Positions 27,092 through 51,588 are shown, counted from the stretch's first letter. The stretch is DNA of 51,588 nt from Candidatus Magasanikiibacteriota bacterium (GCA_018651085.1 JABIEQ010000017.1:1-51588), one strand, 5' to 3'. The notes: generated by a model from the sequence alone, not told the origin. Numbers and translations are program-made.

Positions 27092-27119
27092 AAAAATACC
27101 GATTATTGGTATTTTTTTA
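27092..27119. terminator. Bidirectional rho-independent terminator (radA; also the possible 3' limit of the minus-strand RNA)
   Basis: The stem AATACC (27095-27100) pairs with GGTATT (27108-27113), with an A-run before it and a T-run after it. Confidence 0.75.
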
Positions 27120-27149
27120 TTCTCTAGAGTATATATAGGTATATATCTT

Positions 27150-27460: not shown

Positions 27461-27465
27461 AAAAA

Positions 27466-27494
27466 ATTATATACACTCTTTTGATGTTTGTCAA
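27466..27494 (-). promoter_or_regulatory. Consensus sigma70 promoter for the structured RNA
   Basis: On the minus strand TTGACA is at 27489-27494, the spacer is exactly 17 nt, and TATAAT is at 27466-27471. Confidence 0.6.
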
Positions 27495-27496
27495 TA

Positions 27497-27520
27497 ACAA
27501 AACCCGCATAAAGCGGGCAC
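27497..27520 (-). terminator. Rho-independent terminator after the 493-aa orphan gene
   Basis: On the minus strand CCCGC-tttat-GCGGG is followed by TTTTGTT (stem 27503-27507 / 27513-27517). Confidence 0.7.
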
Positions 27521-27548
27521 TATTTATTCTAAACTTATTACAAATCAT

Positions 27549-29030
27549 CTACTTCTCTTCCCAAACATCACTATTTTCAATGACTTTTTTACAAATATCT
27601 ACAAAATTCTTTATTATATTTCCATCTGCTATATCCCCTTGTATATCATCATATATTTTAAGATCTTCAAGTGCTTCGCCTCCTAATGAGGGCAATACTT
27701 TTACTAGATCTATTAAATCATCCCTTAAGACATTTCCCATCCTTGCTATATTGTCTTCTTTTGAAACGACACGAATACTAGGATCAATATCCCTTACCTC
27801 CAACTCTTTCATTCTTCTAAGCAATATTGTCCATAAGCCAAGATTACAACCATTTAATACTTTATCTCGCATATTAAAACCACCAATATCTCTTGGAAGA
27901 ATATGCTTTGCATCTCCTTTCATTTTTGTTGTAATAACCTTTTTTCTCCATGATGCCATATCATCCATTCCAGCAAATGACATAGGTGATCCATCACTAA
28001 TATCTATCATGCCCGCTCCTTCTACCGTTTCAATTATTCTTTGGATTAAATCACCTTTAGACAAAATCGCAGGATTATCAAAACTTTTTTCTAAAGCTAC
28101 TTCATTAATATGTAAATGTATCATTCGTGTTAATTCATATACACTTCTTGCTTTTCCTAATAAATTTCCTTTATCTTTAGATTCTCTAAATCGTACAACT
28201 CTGTCACGAAATGATTCAAGATCAAGATCAGTAGGAAAATCAGGGTTTATATCTGGCCGAGATGATATATTAAGAGCTGTCCTTTTTAGGCAATCTTTTT
28301 GTAATGCGGCCCTTTCTGGATGATGAATATCAATATCTTCAAAATGCTCTAGTATAAAATGGAACCCTGTCGCGCCTTCACTTTCTTTTTCTAAAAAACT
28401 GGCATTAATTCCAATGTCACCTAACATATCATATAACCTTTTTTCCATGTTTACATCCCATTTTTTTGATGCTATTAACTTTTTTCTTAATTGCTTCCAC
28501 TTTTCATATTGTTCCATTTGAAATGCTATGGCATCTTTTCTTTGATCAATCGTATTTTTTTTTATATCAACTGCATACCTTACGGACAGTACATCCTCTA
28601 CAAAAAGGTGGTCAATAACTCCGACAGCTTCCTCACACAATTGCACTATCCCCCGAAATGCTAGATCTATTTTAGATAGTAATCGTTCTGAACCAGAAGT
28701 ACTTTCTTCTTTATCTAGACTCCACTGTTCATATAGTTCTTCCCATTTTTCTTTTATCTCAAGTAAGGCTACGATATCATACCTTTTATGAGGCATCTCA
28801 GCATCTGTAGCTTTCATTTCCTCCACGTTTTTTTGTATATCTTCTTTACTTTCCTTTAACGCAGCAAAAATATCAAAATTATTTTTGGATTCTATTTTTT
28901 CTTTTATAACTGCAATTTCCTCTCTTCTTTTCTTATTTGGAAATGTTACAGCAGTGTCCTGACCTAACTGTTCTTTTTCGGTATCCACCGTGGGGTCAAC
29001 AATACGGAATCTTTCTGTTCGTCTTTTCAT
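27549..29030 (-). CDS. Hypothetical protein (493 aa, soluble, acidic)
   Basis: This is a long ORF with genome-typical codon usage and its own terminator. I recognise no motif or family. The opposite-strand ORF 27328-28323 is low complexity and is rejected. Confidence 0.6.
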   Translation of the reverse strand: MKRRTERFRIVDPTVDTEKEQLGQDTAVTFPNKKRREEIAVIKEKIESKNNFDIFAALKESKEDIQKNVEEMKATDAEMPHKRYDIVALLEIKEKWEELYEQWSLDKEESTSGSERLLSKIDLAFRGIVQLCEEAVGVIDHLFVEDVLSVRYAVDIKKNTIDQRKDAIAFQMEQYEKWKQLRKKLIASKKWDVNMEKRLYDMLGDIGINASFLEKESEGATGFHFILEHFEDIDIHHPERAALQKDCLKRTALNISSRPDINPDFPTDLDLESFRDRVVRFRESKDKGNLLGKARSVYELTRMIHLHINEVALEKSFDNPAILSKGDLIQRIIETVEGAGMIDISDGSPMSFAGMDDMASWRKKVITTKMKGDAKHILPRDIGGFNMRDKVLNGCNLGLWTILLRRMKELEVRDIDPSIRVVSKEDNIARMGNVLRDDLIDLVKVLPSLGGEALEDLKIYDDIQGDIADGNIIKNFVDICKKVIENSDVWEEK

Positions 29031-29088: not shown

Positions 29089-31170
29089 TTACTCTAAATG
29101 CACCTTTTCTTCCCATTCTTTCATATGCTCATCTAATGATGGATGTTTTTGAAAATCAACTCCTTTAGCGATATCTCTTGCTTTTTTTATCAAATCGCCG
29201 TCTTTCATACTTGCTAGACGAAATTGCTCCATACCGCTTTGATTTACCCCGTATACTTCTCCTGGCCCACGTAAAAGAAGATCATGTTCAGCAACCTTAA
29301 ACCCGTCAGTGTGTTGTTCAAAGAATGACAGTCTCTTTTTAGCATGTTCATTTTCAGCAGTTGTAAATAAAAAACAATATGATTGATGAATACTTCTTCC
29401 AACTCGCCCTCTAAATTGATGGAGTTGTGCTAATCCAAAAGATTCAGCTCCCTCTATAACCATAACACTTGCATTTGGAATGTTTACTCCAACCTCTACG
29501 ACTGATGTTGATACCAATATATCTATGTCCCCTTTTTGGAATTGATTCATGACATCATCTTTATCCGAGGCTTTCATTTTTCCATGCATATAACCTACTC
29601 GTCTATGCTTAAAAATTTGTTCTGACAATTTCTTATGCTCATCAAGTACGGTTTTTTTCTCTGACGCCACCTTCCCCTCTTGAATCAGTGGACAAATAAC
29701 AAAAATCTGCCTTCCTTTTTGAATTTGCTCATCAATAAATGTATAGGCCTTTTGTCTGTTATGTGGATCAGCGACCCTTGTTTTTACAGGCCTTCGTCCT
29801 TCTGGCATTTGTTTAATAATTGAAAGATCTAAATCTCCATATATAGTAAGAGCAAAAGATCTTGGAATTGGTGTTGCACTCATACTTAGAAAATGGGGTG
29901 TCGTATTTTCATCTCCCGATCGATCTTTCATTGATTTTCTTTGCTCTACCCCAAAACGATGTTGTTCGTCTACAATAACAAGATGTAAGCTTTTACATTG
30001 GATTTTATCCGTTAAAAGGGCGTGTGTTCCAATAATAAGATCTACTTCCCCATTATTTATTTTTTGGATAATATCTTCTTTTTTCTTTTTTTTGGATATT
30101 TTTTCTTCCCAAACATAATCTGACAACTCTTGTGCGGTTCTTGTAAAAATGGCAATGGTTTTATCTCCTAATAACTTTTTCATTGAAGAAAAATGCTGTT
30201 TGGCAAGTATTTCTGTTGGTGCCATAAATAATACTTGGCCACCCGCTTCTATTACTCCGTTTGTCACCATAGCAGCAACGACAGTTTTCCCTGAGCCAAC
30301 ATCTCCTTCTAACAATCTATTCATGGGTATAGATTTTTCTATATCCTGAATAATCTCCCAAGCAGCTCTTTTTTGATCATCTGTCAGAGTGAACGGTAAC
30401 GTACTCACAAATGCACTCGCTTTTTCTTTATTAAATGGTACTGACACAGCACTAGACAATTGAATGGCTTGTCTGATCTTTTCTGCACGAAGTTGTAATA
30501 GAAATAGTTCATCAAACTTTAAACGTTTTTCTGCTTGTTTTTGCGCCTCAAGTGTTTCGGGAAAATGTATTCCCTGTATAGCAACATCTAGTGACATGAC
30601 ATTTGCCTGTTTTTGTATAGCCTCAGGAAGCCAATCATCGATATCTTTTGTAATGCCTTGTACTTGTCCAATAAGAAGACGTAATTGTTTTTGTGTGACA
30701 CCTGCTGTGAGTGGATATATTGGTACAATGCGTGCGGTGTGTGTGGTTTCCTTTTCTTCTTGTTCCTTTTCATACATGGGAGAACTCATTTGGATTCCAA
30801 AAATACTTTCAGTTACCTTTCCCGATAAAAATACCGTGTCTCCCACTTTTAATTGTTTACTAATAAAGGGTTGTCCAAACCATACGACTTTGAGTCTATC
30901 TGTTTCATCAGTTACTACGGCTTCTGTAATTATGGTCCTTTTTCTTGGACTTCTTTTACTTTGAATCACCTCAATGACCCCTTTTATAGTTACCTGTTCA
31001 CCATCTTTTAGACTTTCAATTGGCGCAAGGTTACTATAATCTTCATATCTAAAAGGAAAATGATATAACAAATCTGATATTGTTTTAATCTTCAAAGAAG
31101 CTAACCTTTTACTAAGGACGCTTCCTACCCTATGTAATTGTGTAACGGAAGTACTTAGCTTCATATACAA
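29089..31170 (-). CDS. recG: ATP-dependent DNA helicase RecG
   Basis: This is a 693-aa ORF with a TTG start. It has an N-terminal wedge/OB domain and helicase motifs (GDVGSGKT, DEQHRFG, SATPIPRS, QLHQFRGRVGR). Confidence 0.95.
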   Translation of the reverse strand: MYMKLSTSVTQLHRVGSVLSKRLASLKIKTISDLLYHFPFRYEDYSNLAPIESLKDGEQVTIKGVIEVIQSKRSPRKRTIITEAVVTDETDRLKVVWFGQPFISKQLKVGDTVFLSGKVTESIFGIQMSSPMYEKEQEEKETTHTARIVPIYPLTAGVTQKQLRLLIGQVQGITKDIDDWLPEAIQKQANVMSLDVAIQGIHFPETLEAQKQAEKRLKFDELFLLQLRAEKIRQAIQLSSAVSVPFNKEKASAFVSTLPFTLTDDQKRAAWEIIQDIEKSIPMNRLLEGDVGSGKTVVAAMVTNGVIEAGGQVLFMAPTEILAKQHFSSMKKLLGDKTIAIFTRTAQELSDYVWEEKISKKKKKEDIIQKINNGEVDLIIGTHALLTDKIQCKSLHLVIVDEQHRFGVEQRKSMKDRSGDENTTPHFLSMSATPIPRSFALTIYGDLDLSIIKQMPEGRRPVKTRVADPHNRQKAYTFIDEQIQKGRQIFVICPLIQEGKVASEKKTVLDEHKKLSEQIFKHRRVGYMHGKMKASDKDDVMNQFQKGDIDILVSTSVVEVGVNIPNASVMVIEGAESFGLAQLHQFRGRVGRSIHQSYCFLFTTAENEHAKKRLSFFEQHTDGFKVAEHDLLLRGPGEVYGVNQSGMEQFRLASMKDGDLIKKARDIAKGVDFQKHPSLDEHMKEWEEKVHLE

Positions 31171-39595: not shown

Positions 39596-41071
39596 ATGGC
39601 AAAGACACTCACTATTGAAGGCTTAGTCGAGAAAATTTTGGGATATGCTCCTGATTCAGACACAGAGATTGTTCGCCTTGCTTATGAATTTGCTAAGGAT
39701 GCTCATGAAGGACAAACAAGACGATCTGGGGAACCGTATATTACTCATCCCCTTGCAGCAGCTCATATATTAGCTGATATCCGTATTGACCCTGTCATCG
39801 TTACAGCGACGCTTCTTCATGATGTTCCAGAAGACACAGAAGTGACGCTAGAAGACATTGAAAAGAATTTTGGGAGTGATATTGCGTCACTTGTCCGTGG
39901 TATTACTAAACTTGGAAAATTGAAATATCGTGGCGTTGAACGTTATATTGAAAATCTTCGAAAAATGTTTGTTGCAATGGCTGAAGATGCTCGCGTTATG
40001 CTTATTAAATTTGCTGACCGTGTGCATAATCTTACAACCTTGGGATCTCTTCCTCCACAGAAACAGTATCGTATTGCACTTGAGAGTCTTGAAATTTATG
40101 CTCCTATTGCAGGACGACTTGGTATTGCTGAAATGAAGGGACAGCTTGAAGACCTATCATTTCGATATGTGTACCCCAAAGAGTATGCTCGTGTTAAAAA
40201 TATTCGAACTGAGAAACTACAAGGGAAAGAAGGATACATTGATACTGTCAGAACACATGCTAAAGAAGAAATTGCATCTGCTGGCGTTACTATTTGCAGT
40301 ATTGAGGGAAGAGAAAAACGATTATTTAGCTTTTATCAAAAACTCATTCGAAAGGATAATAAAATGGCAAGAATTTATGATCTTGTCGCTATCCGTATTA
40401 TTGTTCCATCAGTTGCTGATTGCTATGCAGTCCTTGGTGTTCTTCATAAAGTGTGGAAACCAGTAAAAGGCCGTATTAAAGACTATATCTCTCAACCAAA
40501 GCCAAATGGATACCAATCACTTCATACCACCGTATTTAGCGAAAATGGTGAGCTTGTAGAATTTCAAATACGAACAGAAGAAATGCATGAGGAAGCTGAA
40601 TTTGGAATTGCCGCACATTGGCACTATGATGAAAAAGGTGGCCGCCTTCCTAAAAAACAAATTCAATGGGCAAAAGAGCTTGCTGAGATCCAAAAAGATA
40701 TATTGAATAACCTTACAGATCTTGAATCCATGAAGGTAGACTTTTTACAAAACCGTATCTTTGTGTTTACTCCCAAAGGAGATGTGATTGATCTACCTGA
40801 TGGTGCTACTCCTGTTGATTTTGCTTACCACATTCATACGGAGATTGGTAATAAATGCGGTTCAGCTATTGTAAACGATAATATTGCGAAACTTGATGCT
40901 GCCTTAAAAAATGGTGACGTTGTTGAAATTATCATGGATAAAGGAAGAAAAGGTCCTAACCCAGACTGGTTATCCTTTGTAAAAACACATACAGCAAAAT
41001 CTCACATTAAACTTAGTGCAAAAAATAAAAAACTTACTGGTTGGCTAAAGTCTGTCCTTCCTAAAAAATAA
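39596..41071 (+). CDS. rel: Short RelA/SpoT homologue: HD hydrolase, (p)ppGpp synthetase and TGS domains only
   Basis: This is a 491-aa ORF with an HD motif (HPLAAAHILA...LLHDVPEDT), synthetase motifs (DLVAIRIIV, GYQSLHTTV, EFQIRTEEMH) and a TGS domain (IFVFTPKGDVIDLPDGATPVDFAYHIH). The ORF ends about 40 aa after TGS. Confidence 0.9.
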   Translation: MAKTLTIEGLVEKILGYAPDSDTEIVRLAYEFAKDAHEGQTRRSGEPYITHPLAAAHILADIRIDPVIVTATLLHDVPEDTEVTLEDIEKNFGSDIASLVRGITKLGKLKYRGVERYIENLRKMFVAMAEDARVMLIKFADRVHNLTTLGSLPPQKQYRIALESLEIYAPIAGRLGIAEMKGQLEDLSFRYVYPKEYARVKNIRTEKLQGKEGYIDTVRTHAKEEIASAGVTICSIEGREKRLFSFYQKLIRKDNKMARIYDLVAIRIIVPSVADCYAVLGVLHKVWKPVKGRIKDYISQPKPNGYQSLHTTVFSENGELVEFQIRTEEMHEEAEFGIAAHWHYDEKGGRLPKKQIQWAKELAEIQKDILNNLTDLESMKVDFLQNRIFVFTPKGDVIDLPDGATPVDFAYHIHTEIGNKCGSAIVNDNIAKLDAALKNGDVVEIIMDKGRKGPNPDWLSFVKTHTAKSHIKLSAKNKKLTGWLKSVLPKK

Positions 41072-41074
41072 TAT

Positions 41075-41106
41075 TAAAAAACGAGGTGTATACACCTCGT
41101 TTTTTA
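41075..41106. terminator. Strong bidirectional terminator between rel and the T4SS-like operon
   Basis: A perfect 20-nt palindrome ACGAGGTGTA/TACACCTCGT (41081-41100) is flanked by AAAAA and TTTTT. Confidence 0.8.
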
Positions 41107-41120
41107 ATATGTTATATTTA

Positions 41121-41672
41121 TTATTGAAAGAAGAAGCCATTTACTAACCAATTATTTCCTCTTTTTTCTAACTCTACTCGAGCGTGCCTTTGCAACACTA
41201 CTCCTAATTCATCTGTCTCTTGTATCCCTACCGTCACGATAGCTTTGGCATTGGTTACTGACTCTATTTTTGTACTAATAACGTTTGTCGTAACTTCTTT
41301 GTATTCAGCACTCTCTTCTAATCGATTTGTGTCAACCCAAATAGCCATGCTATTTGTGACATACACCAATGCATCATCAATATGCTTATTCTTATTATTT
41401 GTTGAAAAACTTCTAAATCGTTCCGTAAAATCTTTTGCTCGTTGTCTAATATATCTTTCTGTTGGATCAACAGGTGTTTGATCTACTTCAATTGGGGCAA
41501 TGATTTCTTGAATAGTTTCTTGTGAAATAAATGGTTGATCTCCGGTTCCTCCATTCTCTTGATCTTCTAGTGTTTTGTCATCAGTACTTTTACCTAACAA
41601 TAAAAATAACGCAATAATAAGTATTATTAGTATAATTATTCCTCCTATAATACCTTTATGTTTTCTTTGCAT
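41121..41672 (-). CDS. Hypothetical bitopic membrane protein, last gene of the T4SS-like operon (VirB8-like architecture, unproven)
   Basis: This is a 183-aa ORF with a short basic N-terminus, one TM helix (IIGGIIILIILIIALFLLLG) and a roughly 140-aa extracytoplasmic alpha+beta domain. It starts 5 nt after the virB4-like stop. Confidence 0.55.
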   Translation of the reverse strand: MQRKHKGIIGGIIILIILIIALFLLLGKSTDDKTLEDQENGGTGDQPFISQETIQEIIAPIEVDQTPVDPTERYIRQRAKDFTERFRSFSTNNKNKHIDDALVYVTNSMAIWVDTNRLEESAEYKEVTTNVISTKIESVTNAKAIVTVGIQETDELGVVLQRHARVELEKRGNNWLVNGFFFQ

Positions 41673-41677
41673 ATATA

Positions 41678-43558
41678 TTATCTATTTCTACCTTTTCCTA
41701 ATACTTCTCGTTGATATTCTTCTCTTGCTTTTTCTATTTCTAATAACTGCTTTGGGTCGGAAGTGATTAATTGATCTTCAGTGTACGAAGCCACAACCTT
41801 TATGGCAGCGTGTTTAAGCCCTGCAAAAAATATCCCTTCCCCTACGGCACTTTCTAACAACAAATATTTCTCACCTTCAGTTAAAAAGAATGTCTTTTGA
41901 ATTAAATCAATTGCAGCTGGAGACTGACGAAGAAGCATTTGTAATGATGAATTGGTTACAATAGCTTTTCCATATGGAGAACGTAAAAAATCATTTACGT
42001 CTTGTGTAATAGTCGTTACTCCAAGATAATACTTTCTTGCTCTTTTTACGAGTGCGTAAATAAACTTAGCACTGTCTTCATGTGTCATGAGCCACCACGC
42101 CTCATCAATAATGAGTAGACGCTTTTTCTTTTCACTACGGACAATATTCCAAATATAGTTAATCACAGAATAAATAGCCATTGGTCGGAGTTCGTCTTCT
42201 AGATCACGTACACTAAAGACAACCAACTGATTATTCATGTTTACATTTGTAGGAGAATTAAATAATCCAGCGAATGTTCCTTCTGTATACTTTCGTAATT
42301 TTAATACCAAATCTCTGGCTCCCTCTAATCCTTCAAGAACATCGAGAAGATCTTGCATAATTGGAGGCTCTACTACAGACAAATCAGAATTTGCCGTAAT
42401 ATCCTTTTTTGCAAATGTTTCTAAAAGTGCTCTATCTAGTACAGAATCTTCTTCAGCACTTACTGAACCAAACATGATCCTTAAAAGCCCTTTTAAGGTG
42501 ATTACAGCACTTCTCACGACATCTTCTGTAGAAATCTGTCTTCCTACAGGACGTGGAAGATCAAAGGGGTTTACCTTACTTTCTGACGCGAGTGAAATAT
42601 TTACATATGTTCCACCAACAGCTTCACATAAATGCTCATATTCTTTTTCAGGATCAATAATGATAATTTCTGTCCCAAACATCAGACTCCGAAGTACTTC
42701 GAGTTTTACCATATACGATTTTCCAGCACCAGAGGTTGCAAATACTACCATGTTGGCATTTTGTAAAGAAAATCTATCAAAAAGAATGAGACTATTGTTG
42801 TGCCTATTAATTCCATACAGAACACCATCATCACTACTTAACTCAGATGACACAAATGGAAAAGATGATGCAATTGGACTTGAATTCATGTTAAAGGCAA
42901 TTGATAGTTCATCAATACCAATTGGTGCAGTTGATGTAAATCCTTGTTCTGCTTGAAAAAAGACTCCTTTTGTATAAATAAGTTTTGATCCAAATATATT
43001 TTCTACATCTTCTGATACTTTCTCTAATTCTTCTTTATCTTTTGCATAGACTGTGGCATAAAATGCAAACTGAAAAAAATGTTCAATTCCTTGGGTTAAA
43101 TCATCTCGCAATTGTTCAATGTCACGAAGCGCTGTTTCTCGTACAGGATCTCTTGGCGCTCCTTTTTCGGCATCAGACGAAAGTTGTGCTTCAAGTGCAC
43201 CTACTTTCTTTTTTAATTGCTTTAATATAATTGCTGACTTTACTGGATAGAAAAACATTGAAATATCAAGAGCAACATTGAGGTTTAAAATTGGGGTACT
43301 CCATCCAACAGAGATGTAACGTGGATATGAAATAACAAAAAATGTACGTAAAAATACGTCACCTAATTGGATGAAGCTTGATTCTACCCGAAACGCGGCA
43401 GGAGCAATGAGGTCTCTTACCGCCACTGTTCCTTCCCTATAGATGCGTTCTTCTTCTAGGGTAACGAGTTCTTCTACTTGTTCTTGTTCTTTTTTATTCG
43501 CGCCCTTTCCTTGAACAATTCCTCGTTTTTGTTGTCTATGTATTGGTTTAAATGCCAT
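41678..43558 (-). CDS. virB4: VirB4/TrbE-family type IV secretion ATPase
   Basis: This is a 626-aa ORF with Walker A (VVFATSGAGKSYMVK), Walker B (RLLIIDEAWWLM) and an N-terminal region typical of Gram-positive VirB4 homologues (LIAPAAFRVESSFIQLGDVFLRTFFVISYPRYISVGW). Confidence 0.85.
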   Translation of the reverse strand: MAFKPIHRQQKRGIVQGKGANKKEQEQVEELVTLEEERIYREGTVAVRDLIAPAAFRVESSFIQLGDVFLRTFFVISYPRYISVGWSTPILNLNVALDISMFFYPVKSAIILKQLKKKVGALEAQLSSDAEKGAPRDPVRETALRDIEQLRDDLTQGIEHFFQFAFYATVYAKDKEELEKVSEDVENIFGSKLIYTKGVFFQAEQGFTSTAPIGIDELSIAFNMNSSPIASSFPFVSSELSSDDGVLYGINRHNNSLILFDRFSLQNANMVVFATSGAGKSYMVKLEVLRSLMFGTEIIIIDPEKEYEHLCEAVGGTYVNISLASESKVNPFDLPRPVGRQISTEDVVRSAVITLKGLLRIMFGSVSAEEDSVLDRALLETFAKKDITANSDLSVVEPPIMQDLLDVLEGLEGARDLVLKLRKYTEGTFAGLFNSPTNVNMNNQLVVFSVRDLEDELRPMAIYSVINYIWNIVRSEKKKRLLIIDEAWWLMTHEDSAKFIYALVKRARKYYLGVTTITQDVNDFLRSPYGKAIVTNSSLQMLLRQSPAAIDLIQKTFFLTEGEKYLLLESAVGEGIFFAGLKHAAIKVVASYTEDQLITSDPKQLLEIEKAREEYQREVLGKGRNR

Positions 43559-43563
43559 AGCGA

Positions 43564-44253
43564 TCAGTAGATATCTTCAACTTGAATCTTTTCTACATTT
43601 TGTAGTTGTTGTGTTAAGGCAACATCTGGGTTATATGTCCCGTAATAAAGTTCAATCAATGCTTGGGTGTCTAACTCTGCTACTTGTAACCCTAGACTTT
43701 CTAACCCTCCTGCAACGTGCCGTGTCCGTACCTCAAGATCATGTCTTCTTTGCTCAAATCTTTTCTCTTTTAATCGAATGGTAAATGATGGCTTTAATAC
43801 TTCTTTAAATCTGGAAAAGAATCCTTTCTTTTTATTTGATAATGGGTCATATGGCACTACCACATAAAACTTTTTTGTCATGATTTGCCCGATATCTACA
43901 AGTTCTTGTACAAAAGCTCTATAATCTGCAATCTGTACACGAAGTAATTCATTTGCTTGGTTTCTTTCTAGCTGTATGAGTTGCTCAAGATATGGTTTTA
44001 TTTGTAATTGACGAGATTGCACTACAATCTGTAATGGAAAATCAATAGAATTCAAAAACCCAACATATGACGATATGATTGCGTTTTGTTCGTCTTCTGA
44101 TTTTAAGGCAAAATTAATACTTGATACTAATAGTACTCCTCGTACGGTTCCATCCTTTAGTACCACCATACCATCACGTATTTCTGCTATTGGAAGGTGC
44201 GCTTGTGTACTTGGCCTTCCTTTTTTTGCCTTTTTTGCTTTTTTACTTTTCAT
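43564..44253 (-). CDS. Hypothetical T4SS-operon protein (229 aa) with a VirB4 N-terminal-domain-like motif
   Basis: It has a Lys-rich N-terminus followed by LPIAEIRDGMVVLKDGTVRGVLLVSSINFALKSEDEQNAIISSYVGFLNSIDFPLQIVVQSR. As I recall the pattern, this resembles the start of VirB4/TrbE proteins. It has no P-loop. Confidence 0.5.
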   Translation of the reverse strand: MKSKKAKKAKKGRPSTQAHLPIAEIRDGMVVLKDGTVRGVLLVSSINFALKSEDEQNAIISSYVGFLNSIDFPLQIVVQSRQLQIKPYLEQLIQLERNQANELLRVQIADYRAFVQELVDIGQIMTKKFYVVVPYDPLSNKKKGFFSRFKEVLKPSFTIRLKEKRFEQRRHDLEVRTRHVAGGLESLGLQVAELDTQALIELYYGTYNPDVALTQQLQNVEKIQVEDIY

Positions 44254-44280
44254 ACATGCTTCGACTAGTATACCATGCTT

Positions 44281-44715
44281 TTATCTCAAATCATTGTCGG
44301 GTCGGTAATACCCACCCGTGTTGACTACTAATGCGAGATCTTTAATTCTTGCTCTACGAACTTTTTTTCTTTCAACCACCACAACGTCTTCTTTTATTCC
44401 TTTTTTTCGTAAATAATCTAATTCTTTTTTAGAATATTCTTTTCTCCAAATTCGTAACCCTGGTTTTGTTTTTGTTTGAATAATATTTAATATAAAATAA
44501 TGAAATGCTTGCCCTTTTACTTTAGCAAAAGCAAACAATAAGGCAATTCCTCCGATAAAAAGGGCTAGTGTTAGAAAAAGAGCTGTATCAGCGAATCTAT
44601 ACACAATAAAAATAATAATCCCAGCGATAAGCATGATCAAAAACTGTCGCACTGTAATAGGTCCAAGGATTTTATCTTCTACTTCAATAAATTGTGGCAC
44701 GACAAACTGCTGCAT
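44281..44715 (-). CDS. PrgI-family (VirB3-like) small membrane protein
   Basis: This is a 144-aa ORF with the N-terminal motif VPQFIEVEDKILGPITVRQF followed by two TM helices, as in the PrgI family. It lies immediately upstream of the VirB4-related genes. Confidence 0.6.
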   Translation of the reverse strand: MQQFVVPQFIEVEDKILGPITVRQFLIMLIAGIIIFIVYRFADTALFLTLALFIGGIALLFAFAKVKGQAFHYFILNIIQTKTKPGLRIWRKEYSKKELDYLRKKGIKEDVVVVERKKVRRARIKDLALVVNTGGYYRPDNDLR

Positions 44716-44716
44716 A

Positions 44717-45892
44717 CTATAACCTAATCGATTTATTGATATCTACAATAACATGGTGTTCTTCGTTACTTAATCCCTCTTGATTATTTAGTACTTCTTT
44801 TAATGTTATTCCTTCGTGTAATGCCTGTGAAATACTTTCTTGATACGCACTATAAAGTGGGCTTCTTTCCCATGCAAGCACTCCTTTTACTAAAAGAAGG
44901 AATGATTCTTTTTTTAGAGTATCAAATTTTGATAGTATCATTTTTTTGCTTGCTTGTGGTGTTGTTCCTAATCTTCTGAAATCTTTTAGTGTAATGTGCC
45001 CTAATTCATCAATTGGCCCAATACTTGCCTTTTCTCTTGGTTGCGGTTTGGGTGGCCTAATGTCATGCATCATTGGTTTAATATCAATCGCTGGAATCAC
45101 AAAAGCATGATCTTTTCTGTTTGGGATAAGTTTTTGAACTTGTGGAGTGGATTTTTTGGGAGTTGGAGTTGCCTTTTTAGGTGATTTTTTTTTAAAGGCT
45201 TCCTCTGGTACCTGAAGTTCACTATGGATGGCACTAATGACCTTTACCGCGTCCTCTTTTGTAAGGCCGACTCCCCCATGGGTGATATCTTCTGTAAGAT
45301 ACTCTTTAATTTGCTCGTCACTTCTTATCTCTTTTATCCTTGACTCGATCAGAGAACCTAATCGACTCACAACACTTTTATCGACTGAAATAGATATGGT
45401 CTTAAGCACTTTATTTACCTGATCTTGCCTTCCTGACACCGCTCCCTTTCCTTTTTCTATGTCTACCTCTTTATGAAAAGTATCATCTAATAATGATTTA
45501 TGATCATCTTCGCCCCAATGAGTATCTTTTGCGGCTGCTTGTTCTTCAAACACCTCAGTGTTTGGTGTGGTTGTACTTATTGCAGTTGAGGCACTTTTTG
45601 TAAGTGCTACTGGTTGAAGTATCACTAATGCTTTCTTTTCAATAGGCTCTTTTGTCTTTTGTGGCGGCACTGAGAATGAAGCAACTGGAGCTCCGGCTTG
45701 TTCTTCATGATGGGTATGTATTGCCCTGTTTTGAGGTAAGAGGTCTTCTTCTTTTTCTTCTTTTTTCACTGCTTTATATGACGCAAATTCAGCCATGGTC
45801 ATACGCACCATGGATCCATCTTTTTTCTTTACAGGAATTGTTCGTTCATGTGCTTTTACCATACAAATTAGTTCAAGAGGTCTTGATTCCAT
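44717..45892 (-). CDS. Hypothetical protein (391 aa; an alternative ATG at 45862 removes the overlap)
   Basis: This is a soluble, partly low-complexity (Pro/Lys/Thr-rich) ORF inside the T4SS-like operon. I recognise no family. Confidence 0.5.
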   Translation of the reverse strand: MESRPLELICMVKAHERTIPVKKKDGSMVRMTMAEFASYKAVKKEEKEEDLLPQNRAIHTHHEEQAGAPVASFSVPPQKTKEPIEKKALVILQPVALTKSASTAISTTTPNTEVFEEQAAAKDTHWGEDDHKSLLDDTFHKEVDIEKGKGAVSGRQDQVNKVLKTISISVDKSVVSRLGSLIESRIKEIRSDEQIKEYLTEDITHGGVGLTKEDAVKVISAIHSELQVPEEAFKKKSPKKATPTPKKSTPQVQKLIPNRKDHAFVIPAIDIKPMMHDIRPPKPQPREKASIGPIDELGHITLKDFRRLGTTPQASKKMILSKFDTLKKESFLLLVKGVLAWERSPLYSAYQESISQALHEGITLKEVLNNQEGLSNEEHHVIVDINKSIRL

Positions 45893-46920
45893 ACAAATCC
45901 ACCTTTTTCTTCGTCAAAATAATACAAATCCCGAATTGCATCGTTGTTATATTGTTCTGCAAGCTCATCAAGATGAGAAAGCACTTCTTCTAACATATTA
46001 ATGCCGGGCTGTTTTGTCTTGAAAAATCGTTCTTCTATACTTGCTCGAATTTCTTTCATTGATGGGGCTTGTTGTGGTGCTTTTACTTCTTCTATGACAT
46101 TAATTGGTATTTTTTTAGTAACCGCTTGAGCTTCTTTTTGTTCTTCTTTTGTATTATTTGGAATATCTTGTTCTTCAGATTCCTCAAACAAAGAAAGCTT
46201 TGGATCTCCAAATATCACATCTTCATCAATGTGCGTTAGTAAAAATGGACCTTGTAATGTTTCAAGGTATTCATCTATAACAACCTCAATATCTCCATCT
46301 TCATAAAAAAACTTCAATAATTCAAGAAAGGCAACAACATTTTGTGTCTGTTTTTTTTCTTCTACAAATACGAGTTCTTGATCCTTGTGATATAGCCACC
46401 CTTCTATATGTGCATAGATATTTGCAAGCTCAATATTTGTTTTATTTTTTTTCGTCGCATACTGTTTTGCAATTTCAGAAATTGTTGGACTGTTTTCTAT
46501 TGTTGGATTTATCCGTACTGATCGTTTGAGAAATTCACTTTTGAGTTTATTAAAGTATGTATGAAGATCAGGGAGACTAATGCTATGCCTGTGAAGATAA
46601 CTCAGAAGATATTCTTCAACAGGGATGTCTAGCATGAATGCGGTTGGTAATTGATAGGTAAAAATATCAATAAATTCTTCCTTATCGTGCCAAAGTACTG
46701 TTTTCCATGAGATAGATACATACCATTTCCAATAAGAATCAAAATAGGTGGCAATTACTTTTGGATCAAATGATTTTGATACAAAAAAATGATGAAGAGC
46801 CACGAATATGCCTTCGATACTTCCCTCTGGATCATGAAAAAGAATAGATAGTTTTCTACTATACTCTTCTTTTTGATCTTCGGTGAGATCCTTAGGTTGT
46901 GTGAACATGGTGATGTCCAT
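45868..46920 (-). CDS. Hypothetical protein (350 aa, acidic, soluble)
   Basis: The ORF lies 8 nt downstream of the giant VirB6-like gene on the same strand. I recognise no family. Confidence 0.55.
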   Translation of the reverse strand: MDITMFTQPKDLTEDQKEEYSRKLSILFHDPEGSIEGIFVALHHFFVSKSFDPKVIATYFDSYWKWYVSISWKTVLWHDKEEFIDIFTYQLPTAFMLDIPVEEYLLSYLHRHSISLPDLHTYFNKLKSEFLKRSVRINPTIENSPTISEIAKQYATKKNKTNIELANIYAHIEGWLYHKDQELVFVEEKKQTQNVVAFLELLKFFYEDGDIEVVIDEYLETLQGPFLLTHIDEDVIFGDPKLSLFEESEEQDIPNNTKEEQKEAQAVTKKIPINVIEEVKAPQQAPSMKEIRASIEERFFKTKQPGINMLEEVLSHLDELAEQYNNDAIRDLYYFDEEKGGFVWNQDLLN

Positions 46921-46928
46921 ACGTCTTC

Positions 46929-49900
46929 TTATTTAAATTTGTTCTTTAACTCTGCCCAAATTTGACTTCTTGGGGATGATTTACCACCAGGGCTAGTAGG
47001 TGGATCATAAAAGTTTAGTGTACTTTCATCTACCCCTAAGGTATTCATGATTTCTAATATAGCACTTACAATATTATCTTTTTGTGCAGGTGATGTTGAT
47101 CTATTAAAATCACGTTCCCAAATACTTATTGCCTCTCCCCAAAAATCTTTTATTTCTGTTTGTTCATCTGTTAATACAAATTTATTTTTACTTTTGTCAT
47201 ATGTTGACTTGTCGAATGTTCCTCCACTTAAAAAGTTAAATACTGAACCATCTTCTTTTGTTACCGCTTTTTTTCCACGAAGTTGTGTTATTCCAAGTGC
47301 AGCAGCTCTTACTTGATCATTATGAAATCCCGTTGATAACTTTGAACCGTCTTTTTTTGTCTTTGTTTTTACAAATGTACGACCATCTCCACTACTTGAA
47401 AAGGTATGATTAACTAATGCTTCTGAAGTTTGAGAGTTGTGACGACTTATCATTCCGTCTGTGTCTCCACCTGTCCCTAACCGGTTTTCTCCACCAAGTC
47501 CAGCTTGGGCAATATTGGCAAACCCTACTTTTCTATCTCCAAATTCATCAATCTGATCCCCAAATTGTGCATAAAACTGCCACTGCCCGTCTGATGCAGC
47601 TTTTGACGATGATGTAAGGAGATTTCTAAACAATAATCCAGATTTATCTTCCTTAAGATCTTTTCGTAATTTTTCTTGAATTTTTCCTGCATCTTCTGCA
47701 CTATCAAAGCTCTTATAGTCCTCTCCTGAAGCTAATCCAAGTAATACTTTATGAAGTTCTTTTGGATCATTTAACTCGTGTTCTTTAAAGGTGTCATTAA
47801 AACTGGCAAGATATTCTCCAAGGAAATTTCCATAGCCTCTTGCAATGGCACTTGCCATAGAACGCATTTGATTTTGTCTTGCGTTTTTAAGGTCAGTTTC
47901 TTCTTGTTGAGTAATTGAGCCATCACTTTCCTTCACTTTTAAATTTTTAATATCACTATAATGAGATTTTATATCACGAAATAACTGCGGAAAATCTTTT
48001 AATGCATATTCTTCAAGTTCTTCTTTATATTGTGAATTTTCCCATTCCCGGAGTTTTCTTTCACCTTTATTTTCTTCTATCCGTAGAATATCTCCAACTT
48101 GCCTTGTTAACCGTTCTGTTTCTGATTTTTGTTTCCCTGTTTTTTGTCCTCCACGACCAGCAGCTTCAAATGCTTCAAAGTAATTCAACCCCTTTATAGC
48201 TTCCAGTCTTACTTTTACCCTGTCTGCTTTCGTCAGACCTTCTGTTGCTTTTTTTCGTGCTTTTTTTAGCCCTCTTTTTTGTGCTCTTTTTGCATTTATC
48301 TCCCTGTTGGCAACTCTTTCTGAATTATTTTCAACATACTCAATAGCTTGTGCTCGTGCATCAGCTTCACTTATATCACTTGCACTTGTAAGTGATGCTA
48401 CCCGTTCATCAATAAACTCACGGGTAAACCCATCAAAGGTCTTTTCATATTTTCCACCTGCTTTGAAAGCTGCAACTTTTTTATCTATATCATCACTAAT
48501 TTCTTTATTATCTTCTGATTTTGTTGTATTTACTCTCGCCACATGTTCTATAGCAGCCACTCTCGTATTTTTTTTCACCTCTACTATAATTTTTTGTCTT
48601 GCGTTCTCTTTCTCAATAATTTTTTCTTTATCAGTATACTCGTCAAACTCACCATCTTCTTCTAAGATTTGCACACGATCATTAAGATACTGCCCAAGCT
48701 CACTGAGGTCTGTTATATCTCCCCCACCATCATGTATAGCAATAGACCCTGCAAAAGAGATTTCATTCAATTCAATCATTTGCCTTGTATCTTTAATCAG
48801 AGATTCTCTTGCTAATTCACCTGCTTGTCCTTTTACATGTTCTATCGCTATTTTTTCTTTCTCTGCATCTTTTAATTTACTTCCATCGGCACCATTAACT
48901 AAAACCTCACCTTTATTAATTTGATCTATATGACCCAGCACGGCATTTTCCACGTCCTGGTCAAGAAATGCTCCCTTGTCAAGCTCTGCTATGATCTTTT
49001 TCTCTCTCTTTTTTATGTCCCCTTTTCCTATTAAGTTTTTCGCTAATCCTTTATCACTTGTTATATCTTCTTCTGAAATATCTAAAAGTGTATCATCATC
49101 TTTTAGTATTTTTTCAGCACGTTCTTTTAATAGCTCAGTCATTCCTTCCTTATACCTTTTACCAAATTCTCCTCTTTGACTTAAGAGCTTTTGTAATTTC
49201 TTTTGATAAAATACTTTATCTTCATAACCACTTGTTTTTTCTTCAGCAAGTCTTGCATCTTCTTTTACTGTTTCAGCCTCGCTTAATTCTTTAAAGTGTT
49301 TTGCTTCTCCACTTCTAAATCCAGGACTTTCTGCTACTTGACTTTCTACTTTCTTTCGTAGTGCTTTTTCTTGTTTTGCAGTAAGTCTGGTACCATCAGC
49401 TTCTAGTTTATTTTTCTCTTTTGAAACTCTATCATCTACCCTATCACTGTAATCTGACAAAATTCGTAGTTTTAATTCTGCTTCACTCTTTTTCTCTGCC
49501 CCATCTTTTACTTCTTTTGCAGCTTTTCTTCTAATAGCTTCTCTTGCAATACCTTCATCACTATTAAAAGCTTTAGCTGATCCCTCGTGCTTATACCTCT
49601 TTGATTGATCGTCAATACTTGTTTGAATTTCTTCAATTTCTCCCTTTCGTCTATCTCCTGATTGGAAAAGCCTTCCGGCATAAGGAGTATTCCTTAACCC
49701 TCTATATGCTTGAAGGGCACCTTTATGTACTTGGTGCTTAAGGGCATTATACCCACTAAGTTTTTTAGCAACTGGTAAAATTGCTTTTCCAACTACAGCT
49801 TTAGTTCCTTTTTTCCCAAGTTCATAGGCTCCCCTTCCAACCACGTACCCAGATCCAATGGCAGCAACGTATTTTCCAAACTTGGTAACGTTACTAAGAA

Positions 49901-51050
49901 GACTTCCACCTTTTACTCCGAGTTTTTGTACTCGCTCTATTCCCATTAACAAAAAGGCTATAGCAATAGCAAGATTAGCCATGTTTTCCCATGTAGTTCC
50001 CGCTGACAGACTTGCTGTGGGGCTTTGTATTACAGCCCCATTATTTAGGCCTGTTACCACTGTTCCTGCTGCGGCTTGTTCTGCACTTGTGGGATCAATT
50101 TGTAATTCTTGCGCAATGGTCCCTGATCCAAACGAGGCAAACGCCAACCACAAGAAAAAGACCATCATTGGGGCTAAAATAACGTGATTGATAAACTCTT
50201 TCCAATATTCTTGAGCGTATGATTTTGTTTGCGGTAGAATCTGTAAAATGTAGGCAAACGGTGAAATAATAATAAGTGTCCAAAGGACTACCATCCGAAT
50301 AAGTAATAATAGAAAGTATACACCTATGGTAATAAGGACTAAGGCTGAAAACATCATGATCATGAAAGATGCCACAAATAGATCAAGCCGTAACCCTTGC
50401 CCTGCGAGTTGTTCTGGCGGAATGGTGTTTGTGATCTTATACAAATCATCTAACCCAAACATGTTGATGATGTTTCCACCAGCAGTTGAGGCAATAGCAT
50501 TTAAAAATGTAATTGTTACCACGTGCGCTGCATCAATAATGATTTGCGCAATGAGTTTACTAAAGTTGATAAGAATGGCTGCAATAACAAGCTTCCCAAG
50601 TGCCTTTTTCCATTCGTATTGTTCAAGTCCTAAGATTGTTCCAAAAGCAATAACGAGTAGTGCTACTACGAAAAACATGTTTGCGAGGTCTCGTATCATG
50701 AACCACCCAATAAGCACTGGTGGCGCATTTGAAAAATCGTTGTATTGTGCGAGCCTAATAAGAAATTCAAGCGCAAACGTTGTGAGCGTAATACATAACT
50801 CCCCAATCGCCAACATGATTTCCGACAATATTCGTATAAACCAATTTGCCGGAGAATTAAACGCTCCAAGATCTACATCTAAACTCCCCCCAGCATCATC
50901 AACGGCAAGGGCAGCATCCCCAAATAAAAATAAACCAATCACAATGCATCCAACAAAAAGCGCACTCAGTAGTAGTGAGCGCTTGTTTGAATTTATCGCA
51001 AACAGCCAGGACGTCAATTGCCTCTTGATTGCTTGGTGCATGGAAACCAA
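46929..51050 (-). CDS. Giant membrane protein: VirB6/TrbL-like polytopic N-domain plus a roughly 950-aa charged extension
   Basis: This is a 1373-aa ORF with a TTG start at 51050 (alternative ATG at 51041). It has a signal/TM segment and at least 6 hydrophobic helices in the first 400 aa or so (for example FFVVALLVIAFGTILGL, LVIAAILINFSKLIAQIIIDAA, MIMMFSALVLITIGVYFLLLLIRMVVLWTLIIISPF). A K/E-rich coiled-coil-like region and a C-terminal globular part follow. Confidence 0.65.
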   Translation of the reverse strand: MVSMHQAIKRQLTSWLFAINSNKRSLLLSALFVGCIVIGLFLFGDAALAVDDAGGSLDVDLGAFNSPANWFIRILSEIMLAIGELCITLTTFALEFLIRLAQYNDFSNAPPVLIGWFMIRDLANMFFVVALLVIAFGTILGLEQYEWKKALGKLVIAAILINFSKLIAQIIIDAAHVVTITFLNAIASTAGGNIINMFGLDDLYKITNTIPPEQLAGQGLRLDLFVASFMIMMFSALVLITIGVYFLLLLIRMVVLWTLIIISPFAYILQILPQTKSYAQEYWKEFINHVILAPMMVFFLWLAFASFGSGTIAQELQIDPTSAEQAAAGTVVTGLNNGAVIQSPTASLSAGTTWENMANLAIAIAFLLMGIERVQKLGVKGGSLLSNVTKFGKYVAAIGSGYVVGRGAYELGKKGTKAVVGKAILPVAKKLSGYNALKHQVHKGALQAYRGLRNTPYAGRLFQSGDRRKGEIEEIQTSIDDQSKRYKHEGSAKAFNSDEGIAREAIRRKAAKEVKDGAEKKSEAELKLRILSDYSDRVDDRVSKEKNKLEADGTRLTAKQEKALRKKVESQVAESPGFRSGEAKHFKELSEAETVKEDARLAEEKTSGYEDKVFYQKKLQKLLSQRGEFGKRYKEGMTELLKERAEKILKDDDTLLDISEEDITSDKGLAKNLIGKGDIKKREKKIIAELDKGAFLDQDVENAVLGHIDQINKGEVLVNGADGSKLKDAEKEKIAIEHVKGQAGELARESLIKDTRQMIELNEISFAGSIAIHDGGGDITDLSELGQYLNDRVQILEEDGEFDEYTDKEKIIEKENARQKIIVEVKKNTRVAAIEHVARVNTTKSEDNKEISDDIDKKVAAFKAGGKYEKTFDGFTREFIDERVASLTSASDISEADARAQAIEYVENNSERVANREINAKRAQKRGLKKARKKATEGLTKADRVKVRLEAIKGLNYFEAFEAAGRGGQKTGKQKSETERLTRQVGDILRIEENKGERKLREWENSQYKEELEEYALKDFPQLFRDIKSHYSDIKNLKVKESDGSITQQEETDLKNARQNQMRSMASAIARGYGNFLGEYLASFNDTFKEHELNDPKELHKVLLGLASGEDYKSFDSAEDAGKIQEKLRKDLKEDKSGLLFRNLLTSSSKAASDGQWQFYAQFGDQIDEFGDRKVGFANIAQAGLGGENRLGTGGDTDGMISRHNSQTSEALVNHTFSSSGDGRTFVKTKTKKDGSKLSTGFHNDQVRAAALGITQLRGKKAVTKEDGSVFNFLSGGTFDKSTYDKSKNKFVLTDEQTEIKDFWGEAISIWERDFNRSTSPAQKDNIVSAILEIMNTLGVDESTLNFYDPPTSPGGKSSPRSQIWAELKNKFK

Positions 51051-51074
51051 ACATTGTGTTTATATAATAGTCAC

Positions 51075-51083
51075 AGTATAGCA
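51075..51083 (-). promoter_or_regulatory. Candidate extended -10 promoter element for the T4SS-like operon
   Basis: On the minus strand TGcTATACT lies about 25 nt upstream of the TTG start. There is no good -35. Confidence 0.3.
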
Positions 51084-51177
51084 TATTTTGTGGTATCAAG
51101 AAACTATTTTTTGATCCCATCCACAATGCCCCTGAATTAAACAAATTGTTTAATTTGTGCTTATTTTAGCGAGTTAT

Positions 51178-51206: not shown

Positions 51207-51315
51207 ACCAATATTGCTTCATATCTTGGAGGGGCATAGAGCTATTTTTTTAATATAGCTATCGATATGACTATTCTTCTTTTTTCTCACCTTTAGTCTG
51301 TTTTACTGCATTTAT

Positions 51316-51588
51316 ATGATAAAACAGACACTTCTTACATTTCTTTTGGTGGTATTTACTCTTACCCCCTCTATGACAGCTCTGGCACAGAGCTCCTCTT
51401 TGGCTATCCCTTCAAGCACAGCGCCTCTTGAAATTTTAGAAGAAGAGCCTTCTTTTGCACATTTAACCTATCCTCTTCTCATGCAAAGAGTTCTTGAAGG
51501 AAGTACTCCTCTTGATCCTTCTCTATCTTCCAGTGAACTTGGTGCAGATTTTGTTTCTTTTATTGATCAAGAAGAAGAACGACTTCAG
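51316..51588 (+). CDS. Hypothetical secreted protein, N-terminal fragment (runs off the window)
   Basis: The ATG at 51316 opens a frame that stays open to the window end (91 codons). It has a signal-peptide-like N-terminus, MIKQTLLTFLLVVFTLTPSMTALAQS. It is absent from the ORF track because no stop lies in the window. Confidence 0.4.
   Translation, partial: MIKQTLLTFLLVVFTLTPSMTALAQSSSLAIPSSTAPLEILEEEPSFAHLTYPLLMQRVLEGSTPLDPSLSSSELGADFVSFIDQEEERLQ

Follow-up and report, generated by a model that had tools for sequence, protein, structure and literature searches.

A chromosomal type IV secretion operon of the Patescibacteria type in a marine Candidatus Magasanikbacteria bacterium

Introduction

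Is a type IV secretion-like operon that lies without conjugation genes among the genes of a reduced-genome bacterium part of a mobile element or a resident machine of the cell, and what might such a machine transport? These questions are raised by a stretch of 51,588 nucleotides (nt) of DNA from a Candidatus Magasanikiibacteriota bacterium (GCA_018651085.1 JABIEQ010000017.1:1-51588), which was analysed over its whole length and is called the window here. Seven genes on its minus strand, between positions 41121 and 51050, resemble those of type IV secretion systems (T4SS). A sequence-only reading had described them as a minimised Gram-positive-type core, lacking a relaxase, a coupling protein and a pilin gene and repurposed for DNA uptake or for contact with a host cell. 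Profile matches and gene-order comparisons show that the genes, as predicted from the sequence, are the core operon of a chromosomal, vertically inherited T4SS of the Patescibacteria type, which derives from the MPF_FATA class of monoderm bacteria. Taken as a whole, this identity combined with the translocon mechanism outlined below is the explanation that we hold with good, though not complete, confidence.

Related systems have been described. In a Saccharibacterium, a Gram-positive-like T4SS is essential for epibiotic growth; the system has pilins, of which an array is essential, and is without a recognisable relaxase or coupling protein, and protein export or an alternative role was suggested for it in S. 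epibionticum (Wang et al. 2023, PMC10633639). A survey of 3035 Patescibacteria genomes (Quinonero-Coronel et al. 2025, PMC12102498) found VirB4 in 2417 of them, where it forms a clade within MPF_FATA. In this survey, TrsD, VirB3/PrgI and VirB6 adjoin virB4, whilst VirB8 was rarely detected and almost only in class ABY1. Pilins of family PF18895 were found in most genomes, and relaxases were almost absent, with few genomes carrying them; homologues of type IV coupling proteins (T4CP) were present in most genomes, rarely near virB4, and comF, recG and radA neighbour the T4SS in ABY1 (PMC12102498). A review from 2025 includes the patescibacterial systems in the T4SS superfamily as new members (PMC12857230). 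Hence, a non-conjugative apparatus repurposed in episymbiotic bacteria with reduced genomes, as proposed earlier for the locus, agrees with PMC10633639 and PMC12102498. The novelty implied at the time does not stand, as both the system and its link to comF, recG and radA in ABY1 had been published in 2023 and 2025.

The operon and its limits

The seven open reading frames (ORFs) are located, in the direction of transcription, at 46929-51050, 45868-46920, 44717-45892, 44281-44715, 43564-44253, 41678-43558 and 41121-41672, and are separated by +8, -25, +1, +27, +5 and +5 nt. Their predicted products are an extended VirB6, two proteins of 350 and 391 amino acids (aa) that are designated u350 and u391, VirB3/PrgI, TrsD, VirB4, and a VirB8-like protein. 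The ORF calls reproduce the coordinates and the spacing, between -25 and +27 nt, that were reported before. Judged by comparison of predicted proteins, all seven are real genes, since homologues of each occur, in unchanged order, in dozens of further species. Gene callers place the start of the first gene at the ATG at 51041, which yields a product of 1370 instead of 1373 aa. The true start of u391 is probably the ATG at 45862 (M11), because this is where the homologues begin and because the model of residues 1-12 is of low confidence; this start would abolish the 25-nt overlap with the upstream gene.

Both limits of the operon fall inside the window. At its 3' side, the operon (41121-51050) faces the convergent relA/spoT gene, which ends at 41071, and the two share a bidirectional intrinsic terminator (41071-41110, both strands), consisting of a perfect inverted repeat of 20+20 nt with an 18-pair stem and T-runs on both strands. 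A strong terminator at the end of the operon had been noted before at 41075-41106, and the full perfect palindrome extends somewhat further. At the 5' side, a divergent intergenic region of 265 nt separates the operon from a toxin-like plus-strand gene with a signal peptide, which begins at 51316. An extended -10-like element (TGCTATACT, 51083-51075, minus strand), read from the sequence, is a candidate promoter within this region. A consensus scan of the minus strand of the 265-nt region revealed no -35/-10 pair and no canonical -35 at proper spacing. The GC content of the operon is 0.362, as compared with 0.375 in the remainder of the window.

Conservation and inheritance of the operon

The operon was compared with 80 species-representative loci of Magasanikbacteria, and the relatives' loci were searched with iterated profiles built on HMMER alignments. 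The order of the seven genes is kept in the 80 species, with 50 loci being complete and the others cut by contig ends, and the median gaps between the genes in these relatives amount to 3-24 nt. The seven genes thus travel together across related genomes. In contrast, the flanks of the operon vary between species. The sequence identity of VirB4 is 72-84% across the 80 species. The best 120 VirB4 matches are 80-85% identical, and all of those with an organism name belong to Candidatus Magasanikbacteria or Patescibacteria; hundreds of proteins of Candidatus Magasanikbacteria reach this level. The operon proteins are also found on marine metagenome contigs, including some from Saanich Inlet, in several metagenome-assembled genomes at NCBI, and on contigs of up to 0.2-1 Mb. 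The host is shown by these sequence relationships to be a marine Candidatus Magasanikbacteria bacterium, a group that we take to correspond to class ABY1 of GTDB. Many relatives' metagenome-assembled genomes have records entitled 'uncultured Gammaproteobacteria bacterium' despite ~80% identity in VirB4, and these labels look like placeholders or errors.

The components differ widely in their conservation. Median identity to the proteins of the window is 79% for VirB4, 69% for TrsD and 60% for PrgI, with 60% for TopA as a comparison, and it drops to 46% for the N-terminal domain of VirB6, 33% for the VirB8-like protein, 29% for u391 and 26% for u350, the fastest-evolving member of the operon. 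This pattern indicates that the motor is under strong purifying selection, whilst the envelope-facing and accessory parts evolve fast. As the same order is found in 80 species, with a VirB4 better conserved than TopA and with variable flanks, the comparison argues for vertical inheritance of an old and strongly selected machine rather than for an integrative and conjugative element (ICE). Five of the related loci (L027, L034, L054, L057 and L064) contain extra ORFs between the operon genes. By eye, these encode small four-helix-bundle proteins, an NYN-domain protein and a 412-aa ATPase, and they look like tolerated selfish insertions.

The motor: VirB4 and TrsD

The product of 626 aa (41678-43558, minus strand) is a VirB4-type ATPase of the MPF_FATA class, similar to that of CD1110. 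It reached 335.3 bits with the NCBIfam model NF045971 (conju_CD1110), which has a cut-off of 325, with positions 173-728 of the 752 in the profile being aligned, and it also matched P-loop_TraG of Pfam (E 1.7e-29). Both Walker motifs are intact, A beginning at residue 274 (ATSGAGKS) and B spanning residues 481-486 (LLIIDE), so that the VirB4-type motifs reported earlier for this product were recognised correctly. Weak NCBIfam matches to CedB (E 3.2e-14) and CedD were obtained as well, at 52 bits against a cut-off of 700.

The extreme N-terminal part of VirB4 is absent from the 626-aa protein. The product of 229 aa encoded just upstream (43564-44253, minus strand) is a TrsD/TraD-like protein (NF041427 TrsD, E 1.2e-8) and aligns to positions 11-89 of the CD1110 VirB4 model and to positions 90-233 of VirB4_plasma. 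From these alignments, the TrsD-like protein is predicted to supply the missing N-terminal part, VirB4 being split as in pGO1-type systems. The split is not due to a frameshift, because the separate ORF is kept in 78 of the 80 species; the median gap between trsD and virB4 is 10 nt in these loci and 5 nt here.

The membrane components: PrgI/VirB3, VirB6 and a VirB8-like protein

The membrane protein of 144 aa (44281-44715, minus strand), the gene of which is located 27 nt upstream of trsD, was earlier held to be PrgI/VirB3-like with two transmembrane (TM) helices. Its match to PF12666, with 38.3 bits against a gathering threshold (GA) of 27, and the prediction of two TM segments at residues 20-38 and 48-66 agree with this assignment. 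The gene is found in 73 of the 80 loci.

The first gene (46929-51050, minus strand) encodes a polytopic membrane protein of 1373 aa with similarity to VirB6/TrbL. Over its full length it scored 18.9 bits with TrbL (PF04610; GA 25.9), but the N-terminal 460 aa alone scored 26.2 bits, and 14 out of 47 members of the family matched TrbL. Thus, the VirB6/TrbL-like polytopic start that had been proposed for this product finds support from a profile hidden Markov model, albeit by a narrow pass. The N-terminal ~430 aa contain multiple TM segments, with about seven hydrophobic segments predicted. The C-terminal ~940 aa are charged, hydrophilic and fast-evolving, and a counterpart is mostly undetectable in the relatives. 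The protein fits the category of 'extended VirB6' mentioned in PMC12857230. Comparison with PDB sequences yielded nothing meaningful.

The last gene (41121-41672, minus strand) encodes a bitopic protein of 183 aa, which is composed of a TM helix (residues 7-26), a variable linker and an NTF2-like domain. No Pfam family, including VirB8 (PF04335), and no NCBIfam or PDB sequence was matched by this protein; a word-indexed homologue search retrieved only the protein itself, and a profile of 45 homologues, which came from syntenic loci and a profile search, found no VirB8 chain among the PDB sequences. The family is present in 77 of the 80 loci. An AlphaFold2 (AF2) model, based on an alignment of 39 homologues, has a predicted local distance difference test score (pLDDT) of 87.8 overall and of >95 at residues 70-183. 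When the model was compared with the PDB by Foldseek, the VirB8 domain of PrgL of pCF10 (7aed) came first in the list (E 6e-5), and the other top matches were CagV (6iqt, TM-score 0.67), TcpC (3ub1), TrwG/VirB8 of R388 and VirB8 of Rickettsia. These VirB8 matches span E-values from 6e-5 to 8e-4 and TM-scores of 0.54-0.67. Based on the modelled fold and on context, i.e., the N-terminal TM helix and the position after virB4, the protein can be called VirB8-like, or PrgL-like.

The orphan proteins u350 and u391

According to the sequence-only reading, four of the seven products matched no family. With a TrsD-like identity for the 229-aa product and a VirB8 fold for that of 183 aa, only the products of 350 and 391 aa are left as orphans. 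u350 (45868-46920, minus strand) is a soluble, family-less protein, and neither it nor its family of 45 members matched anything in Pfam, NCBIfam or PDB. An iterated profile search detected it at this position in 60 of the 80 loci, and it is duplicated in some relatives.

u391 (44717-45892, likely start 45862, minus strand) is a soluble modular protein and is present in 72 of the 80 loci. Its AF2 model consists of an N-terminal β-hairpin with a helix, followed by two helical domains, with disordered linkers in between; the mean pLDDT is 76.9, and it exceeds 90 in three folded segments. Comparison of the model with the PDB by Foldseek revealed no match (best E 5.3), and no Pfam or PDB sequence was matched by u391 and ~45 homologues. 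A precomputed tag, 'HTH_78 (weak)', was not reproduced in Pfam scans of 46 family members and was discarded. The family is large, with 2094 representatives of 50% clusters at E<=1e-3. Among those sampled, the only two that are named are listed as hypothetical proteins, from Magasanikbacteria or Patescibacteria. The available part of PMC12102498 yielded no description of either orphan.

Genomic context and the loss of comFC

The chromosomal setting that was assumed earlier is confirmed by housekeeping genes on all sides; the window contains pheST, rseP, clpC, radA, recG, der, pth, a Mur ligase gene, topA and relA. The sole tRNA lies 10 kb from the operon, among housekeeping genes. Pfam searches covered every ORF of 100 aa or more in the window as well as the adjoining 10 kb past its end, but not the remaining genome, and none of them revealed a relaxase, T4CP, integrase, recombinase or replication family. 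The 10 kb were read from a contig of 282 kb, L007. No T4CP or FtsK-type domain was found in the window or in L007, P-loop_TraG matched VirB4 alone, and no VirB11-like gene was seen at the locus. The claim that conjugation and replication genes are lacking is therefore borne out for the 51.6 kb and the 10 kb beyond, and a relaxase, T4CP or integrase just outside the window, which would have made the locus an ordinary ICE, did not appear in these 10 kb either. Judged from its gene content, the operon is not a conjugative element.

In 69 of the 80 relatives, comFC is located directly 3' of the gene for the VirB8-like protein, with a median gap of 12 nt, and constitutes an eighth gene of the operon. 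The relatives' ComFC matches TIGR00201 from end to end (E 6e-30) and consists of a zinc ribbon and a phosphoribosyltransferase domain. In the window, relA converges on the operon at the place where the relatives have comFC. Neither comEC nor dprA was found in the window. A block of hsp20, vanW and clpP, which lies 5-8 kb downstream of the operon in many relatives (e.g., L018, L024, L033 and L072), is here located at 1-3784, ~37 kb from the operon. The displacement of this block and the missing comFC point to a lineage-specific rearrangement at the 3' end of the operon.

At the other side of the operon, the divergent gene (51316-51588, plus strand, continued in L007 at 5080-9726, minus strand) encodes a protein of 1548 aa with a Sec signal peptide, a transglutaminase-like core (28 bits, GA 23) and, at its C-terminus, an EndoU_bacteria toxin domain (40 bits, GA 25). 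It is followed by a family-less ORF of 143 aa (L007 4637-5068, minus strand), a layout like that of a polymorphic toxin with its immunity gene. The possibility that the EndoU protein is a conserved effector of the T4SS was rejected, as it adjoins the T4SS in none of the 80 related loci. Further upstream of the T4SS region, L007 1-3457 (plus strand) encodes part of a giant protein (2874 aa according to the gene call) with a Cys-rich, conserved C-terminus; a family-less C-terminus similar to it (cluster c13) is found upstream of VirB6 in 12 relatives. Elsewhere in the window, an ORF at 3854-6688 (minus strand) encodes 944 aa with an N-terminal TM or signal segment and belongs to no convincing family.

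Pilin-domain proteins at a second locus

The earlier statement that the window has no pilin gene had to be revised. On the plus strand, ~16 kb from the operon, two adjacent genes at 22429-25754 are predicted to encode VirB2-like pilin-domain proteins, which are fusions and not free pilins. The first (22429-24450) encodes a secreted or membrane protein of 673 aa with a pilin hairpin at residues ~314-442 and a C-terminal C39-like cysteine peptidase (Peptidase_C39_2, E 4.6e-17). The second (24462-25754) encodes a protein of 430 aa with the hairpin at residues ~47-176 and a C-terminal domain with ESGG and GFGQI motifs. Individually, they score below the GA of 26.6 for T4SS_pilin (PF18895), with 20.4 bits for the 673-aa protein and 19.7-21.5 bits for the 430-aa protein. 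Their hydrophobic two-helix modules of 130 aa are 52% identical (E 1e-42), and in the family of this module collected from metagenomes, 43 of 50 segments match PF18895 (best E 3e-10) and seven match TrbC/VirB2. No PDB sequence was meaningfully similar to either protein. At the level of motifs, the C-terminal domain of the 430-aa protein may be lytic-transglycosylase-like, and its counterpart in the relative L037 has the motifs VETG...GMGMTQ.

The two genes are packed with others. Directly upstream are the genes for a TM protein of 408 aa (u408), with a weak match to a TolB-like propeller, and for a DsbA-like thioredoxin of 213 aa (Thioredoxin_4, E 4.3e-16), together at 20551-22424 (plus strand), and downstream is radA (25760-27091, plus strand), the product of which has AAA_25, KaiC ATPase, ChlI and Lon_C matches and a zinc ribbon. 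The gaps between dsbA, the two pilin-module genes and radA are 4, 11 and 5 nt. recG (29089-31170, minus strand; RecG_wedge, DEAD and Helicase_C) is convergent to this block, and radA and recG are located 14-18 kb from virB4. The block of u408, dsbA, one or more module proteins and radA recurs in at least 15 other metagenomic contigs and has the same order in L037, and recG follows radA in many related contigs. In distant lineages, small module-bearing proteins are encoded directly upstream of a VirB6-like gene. Small two-TM pilin ORFs were found neither within the operon nor within 3 kb of it in the 80 relatives.

Several further features were seen around this block. An ORF upstream of it (19278-20426, plus strand) encodes an acidic, low-complexity protein of 382 aa with one TM helix and no convincing family, and it recurs upstream of the u408/dsbA pilin block in several related contigs. 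A soluble protein of 493 aa, also without a convincing family, is encoded between radA and recG (27549-29030, minus strand). The 457-nt gene-free gap between radA and the latter ORF (27092-27548) has a core at ~27142-27440 with a GC content of 50-60%, whilst that of the genome is ~37%. On either strand it folds much better than shuffled sequences do (z = -7.0 and -7.6). It includes a perfect hairpin of 17 bp, matched no Rfam, tRNA or tmRNA model and is restricted to contigs of this lineage. The region is a candidate for a novel structured RNA.

Comparison with known systems

The locus shares with the T4SS of Patescibacteria, as described in PMC12102498, its chromosomal location, the clustering of TrsD, VirB4, VirB3/PrgI and VirB6, and the absence of a relaxase and a T4CP near virB4, as well as pilin domains of PF18895 in the genome. 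Of the ABY1 neighbours comF, recG and radA, the latter two are found 14-18 kb from virB4, and the first is lacking. It has the defining features of this group and, on gene content, adds no new kind of system. It deviates from what is described there in that the VirB8-like protein is recognised by fold alone and that u350 and u391 are part of the operon; a search for terms found no mention of pilin-domain fusions in the paper. Unlike in S. epibionticum (SEML1_0006-0019), which has a tandem array of free pilins, the pilin domains come from a second locus, as fusions with hydrolase-type domains, and, unlike in 69 of 80 relatives, comFC is neither in nor near the operon.

The monoderm MPF_FATA systems, i.e., Prg/Pcf of pCF10, Trs of pGO1 and pSK41, and CD1110 of C. 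difficile, resemble the locus in the VirB4, which passes the family cut-off, in the presence of PrgI/VirB3 and in the lack of outer-membrane core components. The separate trsD gene is shared with pGO1 and the PrgL/VirB8-like fold with pCF10, 7aed being the top match. However, the locus is without a relaxase, a T4CP of the PcfC/TraG type, an adhesin and a PrgK-type hydrolase in the operon, and it is chromosomal, vertically inherited and accompanied by VirB2-like pilin domains, which Gram-positive systems lack.

Other T4SS without conjugative function offer partial parallels. ComB of H. pylori is a T4SS used for DNA uptake (PMC13395361). Like the locus, it has no relaxase or coupling protein, and the operon of the relatives is coupled to ComFC and near recombination genes; in contrast, ComB is of the diderm MPF_T type, with VirB7, VirB9, VirB10 and a VirB11 ATPase, and comFC is absent here. 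The archaeal Ced system (CedA/CedB) also employs a VirB4/HerA-type ATPase, for the import of DNA, and has no relaxase, but it has other membrane partners and depends on Ups pili. Translocators without a T4CP are known as well, e.g., Ptl of Bordetella and VirB of Brucella, and Ptl exports a substrate that is translocated by Sec (PMC12857230, PMC12102498). The Sec signal peptide of the EndoU neighbour is reminiscent of the Ptl case; however, Ptl and Brucella VirB are diderm, belong to MPF_T and possess a complete outer-membrane core, and the toxin gene at the present locus does not accompany the T4SS in the relatives.

Possible mechanism and function

Going by what homologous parts do in other T4SS, PrgI/VirB3, the polytopic domain of VirB6 and the bitopic VirB8-like protein would form a translocon in the cytoplasmic membrane. 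A hexamer of VirB4, to which TrsD would give the N-terminal part in trans, may dock on this translocon and power it. The soluble proteins u350 and u391 would be located at the cytoplasmic side and are candidates for factors in assembly or, the coupling protein being absent, in the recruitment of substrates. The VirB6 extension and the fast-evolving ectodomain of the VirB8-like protein would point towards the envelope and the host cell. The fusions of pilin and hydrolase-type domains would mature with the aid of DsbA and probably provide a wall-crossing or VirB1-like function.

For the function of this machine, import or handling of DNA at the host interface, analogous to ComB or Ced, is our tentative choice, for which the confidence stays somewhat short of even. 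It is slightly favoured because most relatives have comFC in the operon and because radA, near recG, is packed together with the genes for the pilin modules. ComFC binds single-stranded DNA at the membrane and passes it to the recombination machinery (PMC9005727). A bolder version, which we consider unlikely, would have the T4SS of ABY1 as a dedicated importer of nucleic acids, in which u350 and u391 replace the coupling protein, the fusions breach the wall, and DNA is handed to ComFC, RadA and RecG. Quite possible, if doubtful, is a machine for protein export or a pilus in host interaction, acting through a VirB2-like pilus or through effectors that are delivered into or onto the host bacterium in support of the episymbiosis, and having no part in the handling of DNA. 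Wang et al. (2023) suggested protein export, or some other role, for the S. epibionticum system, which likewise lacks a relaxase and a T4CP and has an essential pilin array (PMC10633639), and its T4SS is essential whilst deletion of comEC is viable (PMC12857230), which argues that its essential role is not classical transformation. The VirB2-like pilin domains in the window, the fast evolution of envelope-facing parts, as expected of components at a host interface, and the secreted transglutaminase-like/EndoU toxin-domain protein with its small ORF, divergent to the operon in this lineage, fit export too. Yet that protein carries a Sec signal peptide and is nowhere else next to a T4SS in the comparison set, the operon has no conserved genes for effectors or chaperone-like proteins, and the pilin domains are not free pilins but parts of fusions with hydrolase-type domains. 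A function in export alone would also leave the comFC genes of 69 out of 80 operons and the packing with radA unexplained.

That the operon belongs to an ordinary ICE or integrated plasmid, the relaxase, coupling protein and boundaries of which lie outside the window, is very improbable. VirB4 does fall in the conjugative CD1110 family, and in PMC12102498, T4CP homologues are described far from virB4 in most Patescibacteria and relaxases in a few. Moreover, the operon is bracketed by a weak direct repeat of 28 nt (79% identity; 41083-41110 and 51229-51256). This repeat was rejected as an att site, as it is short and AT-rich, contains the T-run of the terminator and represents one among 43 families of repeats within 12.6 kb, so that it probably arose by chance. 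The GC content of the operon matches that of the remaining window, housekeeping genes flank it on both sides, neither integrase nor relaxase nor T4CP was found in the 51.6 kb and 10 kb beyond, and the conserved order with variable flanks, combined with a VirB4 that surpasses TopA in conservation, bespeaks vertical inheritance. Scarcely credible is also a functionless, decaying remnant of an ancient conjugative system. It could account for the missing T4CP, relaxase and in-operon VirB1 and for a VirB4 in two pieces, but all seven ORFs and the Walker motifs are intact, the split is kept in 78 of 80 species, the identity of VirB4 (72-84%) exceeds that of TopA, and the homologous system of Saccharibacteria is essential (PMC10633639).

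Several points weigh against the Patescibacteria-type T4SS with a role in DNA handling that we prefer. The substrate and the direction of transport are inferred only. No comFC was detected in the window or 10 kb upstream, 61 kb in total, by tblastn or by a profile at E<=10, and its absence from the operon and these surroundings weakens the argument for DNA import at this particular locus, as does the dispensability of comEC in S. epibionticum mentioned above. The search for a T4CP and a relaxase covered the window and 10 kb, not the remaining genome. At the level of single components, the assignment of VirB6 is marginal (26.2 bits against a GA of 25.9, for the N-terminal domain only), the NTF2-like fold is generic, with CaMKII hub domains scoring similarly with the model of the 183-aa protein, and the C-terminal domain of the 430-aa protein is not supported as a transglycosylase by Pfam, NCBIfam or PDB and has too few homologues for a profile.

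Concluding remarks

Few machines have been shown to be essential for the episymbiosis of ultrasmall bacteria, and the patescibacterial T4SS is among them. The locus is a compact example of this system from an uncultured marine lineage of ABY1, and it sharpens the list of parts. Its value lies in the conserved orphans u350 and u391, the recognition of VirB8 at the level of the fold, the link between the pilin fusions and radA, and the loss of comFC in this lineage. If the system is a dedicated importer of nucleic acids in which u350 and u391 replace the coupling protein, these two would be new families of T4SS components, and the whole would be a monoderm functional analogue of ComB. With comFC being linked to the operon in most relatives and lost here, the lineage offers a natural comparison for the question of DNA handling.

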